In this document: one piece after another, positions 25,841-37,560 of the stretch | Position numbering within the stretch: position 1 is the stretch's first letter | How the letters are laid out: each line of letters begins with the position of its first letter | From: Leptolyngbyaceae cyanobacterium | GTDB taxonomy: Bacteria > Cyanobacteriota > Cyanobacteriia > Phormidesmidales > Phormidesmidaceae | Assembly: GCA_965263355.1 (NCBI GenBank) | Contig: CBDHHL010000056.1 | Coordinates: 2,112,001-2,176,000 of the forward strand | DNA length: 64,000 nucleotides | Direction: 5' to 3' | Made by a program: the position numbers and the translations under genes | Notes under the pieces: model-generated | Databases searched by the model: none | Told to the model about the DNA's origin: nothing | What the model saw: the letters and a program-made list of their open reading frames with translations, nothing else

Positions 25841-27520
25841 TTAAATCTGCACTGCATTACCGCTCATGCCTTGGAACTTAAACTGTCCGACCTCTTCACG
25901 GTATGTGGTCTTGACATCGCGCAGCATGCTAATCGCTAGTTTTTCACCCAGCAAATTACCACCCGTCTCAATCCCCATCTCCGGTCCAAAGGCAGTTCCA
26001 TCGGTGCGCCAATGCATACCAGCGCCATCACGAAATAGCGTAATATTCGCAATCAGCTTATTTAGCTCACCATGGATAGTCAGTTTTGTCCCCTGCAAGT
26101 CTTTTAGACCCTGACCGCTATCAGTGGGCACTTGTGGGCAAGGAAACTCACCATCAGCAAAAAAGGCCTTAGCCACCGTTGCCGCCGCTGCAATAAAGAC
26201 AGAGTGACCACCAGGATAAGCGGGGTGAGTAGGAGACCCCTCAGGGAAAGCCATCGGCAACAACCAGGTACCATCTTGATCACCACGCTTTTGAGCCAGG
26301 TTTTGCTGCTTATTGTGCTCAAAAATATAGTCAAGCACCGCTGTCTGCCGCCAAACATGCGCACCCTTACCAAACAAAGAAATAAATTTCTCATCATCGA
26401 ATGGGTTGTTTGGAGAATTCCCCAAAACACCACGCCGGAATAGCTCCAGACGCTGCGCATAGACTTCTGGTCGCAACTGGCGATGTACACACCATTTTTG
26501 GAACCAGGCATGCTTAAGACCATAAACACCGGCTAAACCAGCCTGAATGGTAATATCTGGACCACCCAAGCTACCAAATGCTTCAGCAGTTTCAATTGCT
26601 CCGCTAACATAGGGACTTGCCTGAGAAATAGCTGCCCCCAGTCCCAGAAGCATAATGGTGGACCAAAGACCCGACTGATGGGGAAAGTCAATATGTACCC
26701 ACTGCCCAGCATCACGCAATGTGGTGATATAGCGCTCACCTTCAAGAATATCGGTACCCGTGGGGTCAATATCGCCATTATTAACCCGTTGCCAGGTATC
26801 TAGATCGGTCATGTAATCTAGACATGGCTTAGGATAACGCTGCAGCTAACGAATCGGCTGATTACCAAAGTCAAAATCTTGCAACAGAAACTGTGACACG
26901 TGGGGACCCACATCACACCCTTCGTAAGGACCGCGGAAAATAGTATCCGGTGTGCAAACAAAGCCAAACTCCTGCTCAAACCCCAGGTTATTAAGGTCTT
27001 TACAAGCGGTTGCGATCAGCCCATTCGTGGCATATTCATCAAAGGGAATATCACGACATAGGGCCATCCAGTAGCGCTCGACCATATCAACTGCCGTATT
27101 ACGACTCGCAAATTTAGGAGCCACTGCCATGCGAGCACCATTGGAGTCATTACCAATCAGCTGAAAAGAATAGGTATTGAGAGGGTTAGCCAGCAAGCGG
27201 TTACCGCCACCAAGCTGCACATCATTAAATGCCTCTTGAGTATCTTCATCAATGGCCCGCAATAACGAATCAAACGATGACGGTTTTACAAACCCTTTGG
27301 CATCATGCTTCAGAGCTTTTGTAAACGATGCAAATCCAGGAAAGCCAATCTTTTCAAATCGTTCTTCGTCGCCATTGATTGGAGGAACAGCAACAACAAA
27401 ATCATCGGCTGCACTAGCCCGAACTTTTCGACGAATTTCATTGGCTGCCCGCCGACGCATTCTAAAATCTCTCCGATCTTTAGGATCTGATTCCTGCGGA
27501 ATTGGTGAATTACCTTTCAT
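25841..27520 (-). pseudogene. vanadium-dependent haloperoxidase (bromoperoxidase-like) interrupted by one in-frame TAG at 26846-26848
   Basis: ORFs 26846-27520 and 25841-26812 share a frame (GNQPIR*LQRYPKPCLDYMTD); vanadate-site motifs KHAWFQKWCVHRQLRPE, PEGSPTHPAYPGGH and RDGAGMHWRTD. Confidence 0.88.
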
Positions 27521-28131: not shown

Positions 28132-28197
28132 GGAAAAGCATAATACGTAATACTTTATCTACACAGAAAACATCAAACCCTTACCGCCTTGCATCCC

Positions 28198-29097
28198 ATG
28201 ACTGACTCCCCATCTACCCAAACCCAATTCTGGACCTGGCAAGGCTTCCCTATCCGTTACCAAACTGCAGGCACGCAAGGTCCCCCCCTACTCCTAATCC
28301 ATGGTTTCGGAGCCCACAGCGACCACTGGCGCAAAAACCTACCTGACCTCGGCCAAACCCATCGAGTCTACGCCATCGACCTCATCGGCTACGGCCAGTC
28401 CGCTAAACCCACCCCTGGCAAACCCATTAACTACACCTTCGAAACCTGGGGCCAACAAATTATCGACTTTTGCCAAGAAATCATTGGAGAACCCACCTTC
28501 CTCGTTGGCAACTCCATCGGTTGCATTGTCGCCATGCAAGCCGCCACCATGGCACCAGACCAAGTCAATGGCCTTGTTATCCTTGACTGTTCTTTACGTC
28601 TGCTCCACGATCGCAAACGAGCGACCCTCCCCTGGTACCGCAGCGCACCCACCCCCCTCATTCAGGCCATCCTCAACTACAAACCTGTTGGCAAATTCTT
28701 CTTCTCTCGCCTAGCCAAACCCAACACACTCAAAAATATCCTGCGACAGGCCTACGGTCGCAAAGAAGCTGTCACCGACGAACTCATCGAACTCCTACTT
28801 GCCCCAGCCTGTGATCCAAATGCAGTTGATGTATTTGTCGCCTTTATCAGCTATTCCCAAGGACCACTCCCGGAAGATCTTTTACCCCAACTCACCTGTC
28901 CAGTACTAATGCTGTGGGGCGAAGCCGACCCATGGGAACCCATTGAGCTAGGTCGGGAACTCAGTAGGTATAACATCGTCGAACAATTCATACCACTCGC
29001 AGGAGTGGGCCACTGCCCCCAGGATGAAGCACCCGAACTGGTCAATCCATTGATTAGCGAGTGGGTGTACAGGATGGCGGCAACCAGCTTAGTTTAA
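28198..29097 (+). CDS. alpha/beta fold hydrolase
   Basis: LIHGFGA, GNSIG nucleophile elbow and GHCPQDE. Confidence 0.92.
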   Translation: MTDSPSTQTQFWTWQGFPIRYQTAGTQGPPLLLIHGFGAHSDHWRKNLPDLGQTHRVYAIDLIGYGQSAKPTPGKPINYTFETWGQQIIDFCQEIIGEPTFLVGNSIGCIVAMQAATMAPDQVNGLVILDCSLRLLHDRKRATLPWYRSAPTPLIQAILNYKPVGKFFFSRLAKPNTLKNILRQAYGRKEAVTDELIELLLAPACDPNAVDVFVAFISYSQGPLPEDLLPQLTCPVLMLWGEADPWEPIELGRELSRYNIVEQFIPLAGVGHCPQDEAPELVNPLISEWVYRMAATSLV

Positions 29098-29196: not shown

Positions 29197-30207
29197 AAAA
29201 AAGTACCCTGGAAACACAAAAGTGGATCACAGGGTAGGGGCAACAGTTAAACGCTTGTGCTATTCATAGCCTCGCCTAAGAAAACGGTTAAACGCCTCAT
29301 TGTGTGTCGGTTTTTAGAGTGTCCATAATGCCATCCATAGACTTGCTTCCAGGGAGGGCATATGCGTTACATGGACATTTTTTCTTACTCTCAACAACAG
29401 TCCGTTTTAGCGCATACACTACAGCGTCATACAATATTGCACTGATGCATATCGTTAGTACAGCCCAATAGCTACTCACATTCAATAAAAAAGTACCTCG
29501 CGAACGCAGAGTTCACGAGGTCAGGGCAACAGTTAAACGCTTGTACTGTTATTAGGATTGCCTCAAAGAAAATCTACGCAGTTGGCCCTATGCCATTTCC
29601 TGTAGTGTCCATAATTTATTTACAGCCAAGGGGTTAGCCAAGTGAGCCATGTTACGCTTATGGTGCATCTACCACTGACGATTCGCCAATTTAAAGGTTG
29701 TACACAATCACTGTATAATTCCTGTTTAGTTGACGCGAATCGTCTCAAAAATTCGACCAATTCCCTTTAAATGAAAATATCCTTACAAATCTAAGCAAGC
29801 TCTTAGTAAGTCTCAGCCTTAATTGATAGTAAGGACAACAGTTAAACACTTGTGATTGAATATCACCGCCTAACTTTGAATAAAAAAATACCCCGCGAAC
29901 GTACAGTTCACGAGGTAGGGGCAACAGTTAAACGCTTGTGCTATTCGTAGAATCGCTCAAAAAACTTATTAAATACTATTTTTTGTGACGCTTTCTAGAA
30001 CGTCCATAGGTTTATCGGGTTGAGAATTACGACTATAAAAAGTTGGCGCGTTCACATCTACACTTAATGACCTTTAAATAAAAAAGTACCCCGCGAACGT
30101 ACAGTTCACGAGGTAGGGGCAACAGTTAAACGCTTGTGCTATTCGTAGAATCGCTCAAAAAAGGTCGTACGCCATTTGGCGTATGCCGATTCTTAGATCG
30201 TCCATAA
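29197..30207 (-). ncRNA. tandem array of five related putative small-RNA genes
   Basis: Units at about 29197-29261, 29487-29547, 29775-29856, 29882-29942 and 30080-30140; conserved ACAAGyGTTTAACTGTTGyCC core, hairpin and T-tract; TATGGAC motif at a fixed distance upstream. Confidence 0.7.
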
Positions 30208-30657
30208 TTCAATTACAGCTTGAGCGGACACCATCAGCGTTGTCATTAACTCTGTCGTTACCCGACTCAGACCTAGCCCCATCGCCGATAGGATGAGGAT
30301 TGTGACAAAGGCTAAACTGTTCCCAACATCGCGAATCAATAATTCCACCCGCAGTAATAGCGACGCAGCCAACATCACTAGGAAGTAAATAAAAATCTGA
30401 ATCCAGGATACGACAACGACAGCTAGAGAGGCGATTATTAAGGCCATCACCGTATAACCAAAATCGGACTGAAATCCAAGTAAAAAGAAGTTACGTAAAG
30501 GCTGCCAAATAATGGTGAGGAAGGCTGATTCTATGACTGCATATCCTAAGGCTAGCCACCAGATAAAATCTGAACTATGACGAGCATGTAAAAAAGCCCC
30601 AAACCCCATATAGGCTAGTAGTAATAGAAGTGACGATAACCAGGGCAACTTTCTCAT
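30193..30657 (-). CDS. hypothetical integral membrane protein
   Basis: Several TM helices from MRKLPWLS; follows the NIL-ferredoxin gene. Confidence 0.7.
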   Translation of the reverse strand: MRKLPWLSSLLLLLAYMGFGAFLHARHSSDFIWWLALGYAVIESAFLTIIWQPLRNFFLLGFQSDFGYTVMALIIASLAVVVVSWIQIFIYFLVMLAASLLLRVELLIRDVGNSLAFVTILILSAMGLGLSRVTTELMTTLMVSAQAVIELWTI

Positions 30658-30665
30658 GAGTATCC

Positions 30666-31070
30666 TCAAAGATTGGTAGAAATTGCCTGAACCGGACAAG
30701 TGGGGATACATTGCTCGCAAACAATGCATTGGGCTCGGTCAAAAACCAGTTTGAAGCTTTCTGGATCTAGACGTAAAGCTCCCGTAGGGCAAACCCCTGT
30801 ACATAGGCCACAGTGAACACATAGGTCTTCGTCAATGAGGATCTCCCGACTAGATAGGGATACACCAATTCCCTGGTTACGCATCCATTCAATCGCTTCA
30901 TCGAGCTGATCGATATCGCCAGACAGCTCAATGACCCCTTTACCAACCTGATTCGGTGCCACCTGCGCACGAATGATATTGGCTGCCACATTAAAATCCT
31001 TGGCTAGCCGATAGGTGATTGGCATATTCACCGTCTGTTTTGGAAATGTCAAGGTAACGCGCTTTTTCAT
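30666..31070 (-). CDS. NIL domain / 4Fe-4S dicluster ferredoxin protein
   Basis: FNVAANIIRA NIL domain; CVHCGLCTGVCP and CIVCEQCIPTCP. Confidence 0.9.
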   Translation of the reverse strand: MKKRVTLTFPKQTVNMPITYRLAKDFNVAANIIRAQVAPNQVGKGVIELSGDIDQLDEAIEWMRNQGIGVSLSSREILIDEDLCVHCGLCTGVCPTGALRLDPESFKLVFDRAQCIVCEQCIPTCPVQAISTNL

Positions 31071-35751: not shown

Positions 35752-37560
35752 TTAAATCCAAGGTAAGCCCATCGGCCAATAGAGTACTGTAATCGAAACC
35801 TGTTCTTGACGTAAAAAGGCCATCATCCGGCGATGCACATTACCGACAGACTGCCGTGCCTCAAAGGTCTTTAAATGCATCCAGGAACGCAAAGTCTCAC
35901 CTTCAGCGCGCGCTTGTTCAGGTGCTACGGTTCTCAACCAGCCTTGGACACTAGCAGGCAAGGTTTGAGTCATCCGCACCGGTAACCTCCCCGTAGAAAA
36001 CCGTTGGGCATAGGCAGGTTCTAAAAAGACCCTGTAAGTTTCGGCGGCATCAGTCTGCTGCATCGCCACGCTAAGGGCAAGCGCCTTTAAGTACTCCCTT
36101 AACATAACCGTTTGTTCACCCGATAATTCTGGCATAAACGGAATCTGGGTGAGGGCTTCATTCACATTTTCAGGATCACCCACACTCAAATGGGTTCCAC
36201 CAATCACCGCAATCAAATGATTGTCTGCTCCTGTAAGCTGATTAAACGGTCCTAGCTGCTGGGCTAATGTCGGAGTCACACCGTCTTTGGTGCCAGTCAA
36301 AATAATGCTGGGGACATCCACATTTGCTAAACCTTTACGACCAAATAACCGTCCCACTAGTGGATTCATCGCAATTACTTGGGTAATCCGCCTATCACTC
36401 AGGTCTGCTGTGACTTCAGGCAACTCTACTGCGGCGCACTGGAGCCAATCAGCTGGCGACAACCCCACGGGTGTCAAGCTGTCACAAAATGAGGGCAATG
36501 CCGATACATCTAACTTTGCCCCGGCCAGGGCAAAGCCGGTATAACCGCCCAAGGAATGGCCAATTAGCACTACCTCTTGTGGATCAAACTTACCTGCCAA
36601 CATGGGTGACACCTGTTCCATCCATTCCAGACGGTCCAGGACATAGGAAACATCACGAGGCCGATCCAGAAACTCACTGGCTGGCAAAATTCGGCTAGGA
36701 TCCTCAATCGCACCAGGATCCAAGGGCGTATTATTGAGGGCTTCAACGTTACTGCCCACATGCTCTACAGCTACCACAGTCAAACCATGGGAGGCCAAGT
36801 GTTCACCAATATAGGTTAGAAAGCGTCGATCGGCTGCAAATCCATGGGACAGGACTAAAAGTGGTGCATCGTCCAAAACAGTCTGCTCTGGCACATACAC
36901 ATCTATGGGAATTAACCGGTTGTTGCGATCGCTATCAATAAACTTAAACGAACGCTGGGTCACAGCCACCGAGCCATCCGCAGTGGGATCCAGGTCATCT
37001 GGTAAATCGATATCATCACTGACCAGCAGTTCTTGCTCCAGAACACTGCTCAACGCATCTCCTTCCAGTCGCGATAGATTGAGCTGTGACACCAGCGCCA
37101 GAGCTGCCGTTAAATCCACATCTAACGTTTGCTGGGGCACAGCCCGCAATACCCCAAGCATATTTAAGCCATTGGTCTGTTTAGCTGCTAAGCGAATGGC
37201 TCCCCGAATTTGCTCTACCGTCAGCCCAGGTGCCACACGAGCTAAAGAATCCAGCAATAACTCACCATTGGGCGATGCCAAAATATCAGCCACCATCCGA
37301 TCTGCCATAGCTGGATTCAACGCCACCCGATTATTGAGCATTGTCCGGAGTTCAGGCGTCAAAAACGACTGGTAAAGCCTCAAACGCGATGGTACCTGAC
37401 CTGTTTTAGCAAATTCTTCCAAATCACTGACATAAACTGTCTGCTTAATGGGACCTATTTGAATATTGACCCGCTCTGCGGCTTGCGCTGGCGCACATAG
37501 CACTACCCCCACCGCCATAGCACTACTCCATAAAACAGACCGCCATCGCTGCCACTTCAT
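35752..37560 (-). CDS. DUF1400 plus alpha/beta hydrolase, secreted
   Basis: Signal peptide ending AQAAE, then LSHGF, GHSLGG and GGTHLS. Confidence 0.85.
   Translation of the reverse strand: MKWQRWRSVLWSSAMAVGVVLCAPAQAAERVNIQIGPIKQTVYVSDLEEFAKTGQVPSRLRLYQSFLTPELRTMLNNRVALNPAMADRMVADILASPNGELLLDSLARVAPGLTVEQIRGAIRLAAKQTNGLNMLGVLRAVPQQTLDVDLTAALALVSQLNLSRLEGDALSSVLEQELLVSDDIDLPDDLDPTADGSVAVTQRSFKFIDSDRNNRLIPIDVYVPEQTVLDDAPLLVLSHGFAADRRFLTYIGEHLASHGLTVVAVEHVGSNVEALNNTPLDPGAIEDPSRILPASEFLDRPRDVSYVLDRLEWMEQVSPMLAGKFDPQEVVLIGHSLGGYTGFALAGAKLDVSALPSFCDSLTPVGLSPADWLQCAAVELPEVTADLSDRRITQVIAMNPLVGRLFGRKGLANVDVPSIILTGTKDGVTPTLAQQLGPFNQLTGADNHLIAVIGGTHLSVGDPENVNEALTQIPFMPELSGEQTVMLREYLKALALSVAMQQTDAAETYRVFLEPAYAQRFSTGRLPVRMTQTLPASVQGWLRTVAPEQARAEGETLRSWMHLKTFEARQSVGNVHRRMMAFLRQEQVSITVLYWPMGLPWI

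Follow-up and report, generated by a model that had tools for sequence, protein, structure and literature searches.

We analyzed a 64,000-nucleotide stretch of DNA from a Leptolyngbyaceae cyanobacterium (the window), in which a 21-nt core occurs five times on the minus strand (29238-29258, 29524-29544, 29833-29853, 29919-29939 and 30117-30137), compared to a chance expectation of 0.01 and with a count of five reached in none of 100 shuffles. A hairpin followed by a T tract lies behind four of the five cores (fold z -2.5 to -4.2; a stem scan flags three of these four), and folding thus bears out the terminators that an earlier note on this DNA had read in four units. Each of the four is a predicted small RNA (sRNA) gene on the minus strand, with an activator-type box and a -10 hexamer upstream. 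Copy A (30080..30140, 61 nt) carries its seed at nucleotides 7-20 and its terminator stem at 30087-30115; its -10 hexamer (30147..30152, minus strand) is non-consensus, and its conserved box (30182..30203, minus strand) reaches into the final codons of the membrane-protein open reading frame upstream. Copy B (29882..29942, 61 nt) has its terminator stem at 29889-29917, its -10 at 29949-29954 and its box at 29984..30005, while in copy C (29487..29547, 61 nt) the stem lies at 29495-29521, the -10 at 29554-29559, and the box (29589..29610) is more diverged than the others. Copy D (29197..29261, 65 nt) ends in a different terminator hairpin (about 29204-29236) and has its -10 at 29268-29273 and its box at 29303..29324.

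The remaining core (29833..29856, minus strand) follows the terminator of copy B at a distance of 25 nt and has two substitutions. It shows no hairpin (fold z -0.39), box, -10 or terminator, and a counterpart is absent from the five four-copy arrays of relatives that we checked. For these reasons, we read the array as four complete predicted genes plus one promoterless, terminator-less remnant. The five separately promoted units of the earlier note are therefore retained as five cores at the places it gave, but its unit at 29856 is neither a complete gene nor separately promoted.

Downstream of the array lies a convergent alpha/beta-hydrolase gene (28189..29097, plus strand), a conserved neighbor whose role in the system is only putative, and upstream lie a membrane-protein gene and a NIL-domain ferredoxin gene (30193..31070, minus strand), which are also conserved neighbors at some distant homolog loci. 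A thioredoxin-like gene is a further neighbor, and this gene order is conserved across homolog loci. The array is unlikely to be an assembly artefact, since contigs from public sequencing runs cover all of it piecewise (30 of 30 bins, from two runs of a single sample, with no single record spanning it), and orthologous arrays occur in other genomes. Near 30140, the loose end of one contig from these runs (X1/X2) carries another spacer, which points to a further unit variant in the same sample. Seed-like words also occur in array promoters or just behind terminators, both in the window (29280-29296) and at three other loci (L010, L018 and L038); these are probably duplication relics and possibly sites. 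Elsewhere in the window (25841-27520, minus strand), two adjacent open reading frames encode 224 and 323 amino acids, and the downstream one matches vanadium-dependent bromoperoxidases over their C-terminal half (E 2e-36), so that a bromoperoxidase-like gene looks split in two.

Comparison of the promoters across loci defined two elements. The -10-like hexamer has a non-consensus first base, and 112 of 114 units share an A at -11 and a T at -7. A 22-bp box, a pseudo-palindrome conserved over 68 distinct promoters, precedes it by 29-30 bp, at about -63 to -42, at 115 of 123 cores; both box and T tract are present at 113 of 121 cores. The earlier note had missed this box, and its description of the DNA between units as non-repetitive does not hold, as the box recurs at each complete unit. 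Such a box ahead of a weak -10 is the layout of an activator-dependent promoter, and this layout places the +1 where the earlier note had put the 5' ends, 7 nt behind the conserved hexamer. An activator would bind the box and switch on the weak -10.

The box appears to be largely dedicated to the sRNA, as 29 of 36 strict box matches in 50 genomes fall at the gene of this sRNA. A regulon search with the box yielded, among 12 sites examined, two plausible extra promoters, which we regard as candidates only: at L198:1628 and L199:1585 an intergenic box lies upstream of a repeat-rich exported-type protein and of an acyltransferase-like gene (assigned by eye), possible members of the regulon. In one lineage (L381, L384, L386 and L108), a divergent hemB-like gene (also by eye) starts approximately 25-50 nt from the box of the RNA, so that the two may share a control region. 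We considered that the box might be an HLR1-like direct repeat of RpaB, but the alignment lacks that periodicity.

The RNA itself has a constant 5' part and a hairpin that changes in sequence and keeps its pairing, much as the earlier note had seen within the array. Specifically, in a clade alignment of 97 RNAs the 5' core is invariant and 8 of 8 terminator pairs show compensatory change, and class-wide 8 of 10 pairs covary, a score reached by none of 500 shuffles. The RNA begins directly with the seed in most lineages, whereas in the clade of the window a 6-nt extension precedes it.

An exact 19-nt scan of species genomes found 78 loci, nearly all in genomes titled Leptolyngbya-, Phormidesmis-, Leptothoe- or Adonisia-like, of which we kept 76 after dropping a chance match (L075) and a duplicate (L048, of L047). 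Fifty-five of these 76 loci have one copy, eight have two, six have three and seven have four. Copy number follows the neighboring hydrolase: at all 18 multi-copy loci where it could be measured, the hydrolase is at least 85% identical to that of the window, whereas identity is at most 74% at 51 of 53 single-copy loci, the two exceptions lying near contig ends. On this pattern, the window belongs to a Leptothoe/Adonisia-like clade. Weak matches of our first model outside the clade carry the same box, and a strict box-plus-seed pattern found the gene in 62 of 301 genomes of the class (reversed control, 0). A covariance model of promoter plus RNA found it in 48 of 150 genomes at E up to 0.01 (one match partial and doubtful), with tandem copies only in genomes of the window's clade. 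Thus, the RNA is single-copy except in the Leptothoe/Adonisia clade, where two to four copies stand in tandem; the tandem amplification proposed earlier is real, but it is confined to one clade.

Within that clade the array appears to be inherited: when the promoters of the window's four complete copies were compared to those in the four-copy arrays of five relatives, 16 of 20 comparisons picked the copy at the same position. The seeds are identical among copies and the spacers have diverged. Exact cores occur at one locus per genome in 5 of 5 genomes tested, so the unit is not a dispersed mobile repeat. Among 18 near-matches to the core in four genomes, most were unrelated coding sequence and were set aside; one was the target site described below, which we recognized later. 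No match to the unit was found on plasmids. Viral contigs gave 40 exact 15-mer matches, which we judged to be chance since none has the promoter word.

The family is apparently undescribed, in agreement with the earlier note. An Rfam 15 search gave no match for the window (E up to 5) or for four divergent homolog loci (L141, L344, L384 and L070). Literature searches by exact words and by topic, with figures, subscription papers and coordinate-only tables of transcription start sites outside their reach, returned no paper on this RNA, including in the accessible parts of PMC6596454, PMC3610870, PMC6091082, PMC3516471 and PMC6202907, and no sRNA acting in trans on nlpD, dipM, alr3353 or slr0993. 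Exact words gave nothing relevant in an sRNA table of Nostoc 7120 or in UTEX 2973 supplements, and at least four short word matches in a Synechocystis CRISPRi supplement could be tied to no locus. No RNA run was among the sequencing-run matches listed. There is a modest though not negligible chance that a homolog in a model strain is already catalogued and uncharacterized. We conclude that these loci are a class-wide cyanobacterial sRNA family, as predicted from sequence, and that the array in the window is a clade-specific amplification and not the main point.

We then asked what the seed might pair with. When 39 carrier genomes were searched for complements of the seed outside the sRNA itself, a single context came up repeatedly, in nine of them: the leader of a gene of 640-800 amino acids that lies downstream of trmL and starts with TTG. 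The encoded protein has two LysM domains at its N-terminal side and a C-terminal M23 domain (LysM-LysM-M23), an architecture like that described for DipM-type proteins (PMC4015805). Its best NCBIfam matches are ActS, NlpD and DipM, all below cut-off, and by domain architecture we assign it to the DipM/NlpD type, with likeness to DipM, Alr3353 and Slr0993. The gene is absent from the 64-kb window. Further leaders were gathered independently of the seed, by a Shine-Dalgarno pattern and a protein search, and eight pattern matches were dropped by eye as non-target.

In 41 modeled leaders, the site lies at approximately -35 to -22 from the start codon and ends 7-10 nt before a strong Shine-Dalgarno sequence. 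Relative to the start it falls in all three frames (16/16/7) and so does not reflect codon conservation. Some leaders have an in-frame ATG farther upstream, but its frame is not kept, and we therefore did not take it as the start. In the wider clade of the window (L220-L224), the target leaders are predicted at 161-216 nt compared to the usual ~115 nt, with a changed promoter. Loose target patterns showed no enrichment over control among the matches listed. Possible secondary targets, where long complements of the seed directly precede or follow a start codon, lie at G480:C3:62231, G347:C451:26190, G399:C54:8994, G486:C37:5458 and G550:C1:3357601; they include a start that resembles a response regulator and an N-terminus like that of gyrase (by eye).

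If the seed pairs with this leader, the two sequences are expected to change together. Duplexes form in 39 of 39 genomes that have both loci, including five of the window's wider clade, and in 35 of the 39 they beat all 200 shuffles. In the 35 genomes without an indel (the count leaves out four indel genomes), 456 of 490 pairing cells are Watson-Crick, 24 are G:U and 10 are mismatched. In a set of 60 pairs, all 13 core positions are paired in 44 and at least 12 in 50. Cognate duplexes have a mean energy of -23.6 kcal/mol compared to -22.3 kcal/mol for non-cognate ones, the genomes being related; for the same reason, p-values in this analysis overstate the case. Seed changes at positions 3, 5, 7, 12 and 14 are matched by changes in the target. 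Seed changes lack a matching target change in G035, G494 and G526, and five genomes show the same at position 14, on the edge.

The pattern of substitution in the target bears directly on whether pairing occurs as RNA. The seed and the leader site might both be DNA sites of one transcription factor, with an operator at the +1 of each unit, the matched changes being drift in its specificity and the RNA a by-product. Seed-like words near -35 in a few array promoters (including copy D of the window and L010) would fit such a factor, as would the few outer letters that the leader site and its 3' flank share with the promoter box (by eye). Over 12 distinct sites, however, transitions are skewed to those that form G:U with an unchanged seed (15 at the eight wobble-permissive positions vs 2 at the five non-permissive positions), which is not expected of a DNA site, and a covarying terminator stands right behind the seed in each unit. 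We consider this explanation very unlikely, also in view of one genome, G327, in which complementarity is kept in rewritten sequence next to an unchanged promoter box.

This genome emerged when a broader model was applied to 31 genomes missed by the strict pattern. The model found the RNA in 13 of the 31 (one of them, G035, was in the training set), and presence followed the state of the leader site: 12 of 17 genomes with an intact site have the RNA, compared to 1 of 14 with a decayed site. In the five other intact-site genomes the broader model did not find the RNA, and in decayed-site genomes neither loose patterns nor model R2 found variant RNAs. G327, the sole carrier with a decayed site, keeps box and terminator and has a wholly different seed. 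Of 69 leaders, the one that this rewritten seed pairs with best is the genome's own, likewise rewritten (-27.3 kcal/mol), and only 4 of 2000 shuffles do as well. A protein-binding motif is not expected to change along with an mRNA site or to be rewritten with it, and compensatory change was seen in 0 of 9 pairs of the weak 4-bp hairpin that the leader site can form by itself, so that, in spite of this hairpin and of an invariant core that is multi-copy in the window's clade, we give next to no credence to the idea that the RNA titrates a protein, with the array adding sites and the leader complement being structural and unrelated.

The pairing was also seen out of sample. In ten further genomes, in which nine pairs were scored, no more than 7 of 500 shuffles did as well as the duplex in seven of the nine; the two weak ones were in G026 (331 of 500 shuffles as good) and G133 (69 of 500). 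A compensated change is seen in G410, and G294 has one internal mismatch, with 83 of 526 background leaders as good by energy. By contiguity, at least 12 pairs in a row occur in 0 of 526 other leaders, while 13-14 occur in five of six leaders of the window's wider clade. On a weak tree of 67 columns, the compensated positions 5, 12 and 14 need 2, 3 and 2 events, of which 1, 1 and 2 are forced (G446 was excluded from the position-14 group), and decay of the site in 13 genomes takes about 3 events. This suggests several independent compensatory events, few of them forced. From this comparison of genomes, we conclude that the seed and a leader site in an mRNA encoded at another locus are both conserved, are complementary and show compensatory change.

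The best explanation, which we hold with good though not full confidence, is that every complete unit encodes, as a gene in its own right, a trans-acting sRNA of 50-65 nt, whose seed is predicted to pair with the leader of the LysM-LysM-M23 mRNA. The recurrent gene anatomy and the co-evolving target thus speak for the trans-acting sRNA with a single-stranded seed and an intrinsic terminator that the earlier note had predicted, and the promoter and intrinsic terminator at each unit are those expected of a free-standing, trans-encoded sRNA gene. An RNA of 50-65 nt would be transcribed from each complete unit and end at the terminator, and its 5' seed of 13-15 nt would pair with the leader site upstream of the Shine-Dalgarno sequence. 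Pairing would then repress translation, a direction that we favor by a modest margin because the Shine-Dalgarno sequence can fold into a local hairpin and the site lies where the ribosome would first load; blocking an upstream loading site on a structured start is a known mode of sRNA repression. The likely effect would be control of septal peptidoglycan splitting, and the RNA probably tunes cell division or filament remodeling.

The main competitor is that pairing activates or stabilizes the mRNA, as it might if it hid an RNase E site or opened the ribosome-binding region; we regard this as somewhat less likely than repression and well worth weighing. The site is upstream of the Shine-Dalgarno sequence and not on it, and among 41 leaders, pairing makes the ribosome-binding site easier to open in 18 and harder in 10 by modeled energy. 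On average this energy drops by just 0.5 kcal/mol, however (8.2 unbound vs 7.7 kcal/mol bound; 41 leaders, p 0.052). Moreover, the Shine-Dalgarno hairpin (5 bp, without compensatory support) is made with bases just downstream and does not involve the site, so that pairing would not open it. A precedent exists for activation in Yfr1, which pairs far upstream in amiC2 and thereby increases its expression (PMC6974561). Ncr1080, reported as a separate transcript upstream of Synechocystis nlpD, hints at processing of this region (PMC10615215).

A separate issue is what the array contributes. With the seed unchanged, tandem amplification in Leptothoe/Adonisia would most simply mean higher dosage or diversified induction. 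The array might instead be a neutral local duplication of a functional sRNA, given that one copy suffices in most cyanobacteria and that one decayed remnant occurs in the window and others in L018. We think this rather unlikely, as the multi-copy loci with a measurable neighbor all fall in one clade (18 of 18), promoters match at the same position in 16 of 20 comparisons, and seeds have stayed identical while spacers diverged.

We also offer, tentatively and as a possibility that we would not bet on, a broader interpretation of the sRNA as the effector of an ancient, so far unrecognized division or envelope checkpoint, in which an activator bound to the box induces an sRNA that throttles a DipM/NlpD septal hydrolase factor; one clade would have tuned the system by dosage, and some lineages would have lost or rewritten RNA and site together. 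If true, the checkpoint would control whether cells separate, filaments break or nanopores are drilled.

To our knowledge, targets are known for no more than a handful of cyanobacterial sRNAs that occur class-wide, and the present family would add another, with a single, strongly co-evolving predicted target. The DipM of S. elongatus localizes to the septum, where the cell divides, and attempts to deplete it do not reach completion; such proteins are needed for moss chloroplast division (PMC4015805), and Alr3353 of Anabaena interacts with AmiC1 and affects nanopores and their formation (PMC6463045). The timing of septal wall splitting in cyanobacteria thereby becomes directly testable, the promoter box provides a handle on the regulator, and G327 offers a natural example of a jointly rewritten sRNA-target pair.

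The closest known system in layout is NsiR1 (RF02399) of Nostoc sp. PCC 7120, described as a trans-acting sRNA of ~60 nt that is encoded in a tandem array with its own promoters and acts on 5' UTRs (PMC9045159). The likeness drawn by the earlier note extends to this layout (tandem copies, individual promoters and a length of ~60 nt, known here from sequence) and no further: RF02399 finds no match at the array, and no DIF1 hexamer lies within 29197-30207 (only two occur in the window, at 37344 and 48171). Moreover, the array is flanked by the alpha/beta-hydrolase, membrane-protein and NIL ferredoxin genes and does not lie next to hetF, and the RNA has another seed and target and is usually single-copy. 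Leptolyngbya sp. PCC 7375 (G001), which we take to be non-heterocystous, has this array and a true NsiR1 cluster elsewhere, with four tandem NsiR1 matches over the Rfam cut-off at G001:C5:4104981-4105749 and two more scattered. Four carriers tested also hold NsiR1 clusters (4-13 matches), consistent with their being heterocyst-forming lineages.

Other cyanobacterial sRNAs share single features with the family. PsrR1, given as 131 nt (PMC6091082), is set apart by length. Ncr1080/SyR47 of Synechocystis sp. PCC 6803 is linked to nlpD (slr0993) (PMC10615215), but it sits upstream of nlpD itself, whereas the array RNA comes from an unlinked locus and would pair in trans. Yfr1 is likewise a short, widely conserved cyanobacterial sRNA with an invariant motif that pairs with cell-wall mRNAs, according to a paper (PMC6974561) in whose main text nlpD is not named and alr3353 appears in a reference only. 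Unlike Yfr1, the array RNA has no Rfam match, carries its seed 5' before a single hairpin and does not lie upstream of trxA. The functional parallel is found outside the cyanobacteria, in OmrA/OmrB of E. coli and the csRNAs of Streptococcus, which are tandem siblings with a shared 5' seed, regulator-dependent promoters and targets among envelope or autolysis genes (PMC4211561). They belong to different phyla and have no sequence relation to the array RNA, but by analogy the RNAs of the array would work like such sibling envelope sRNAs.
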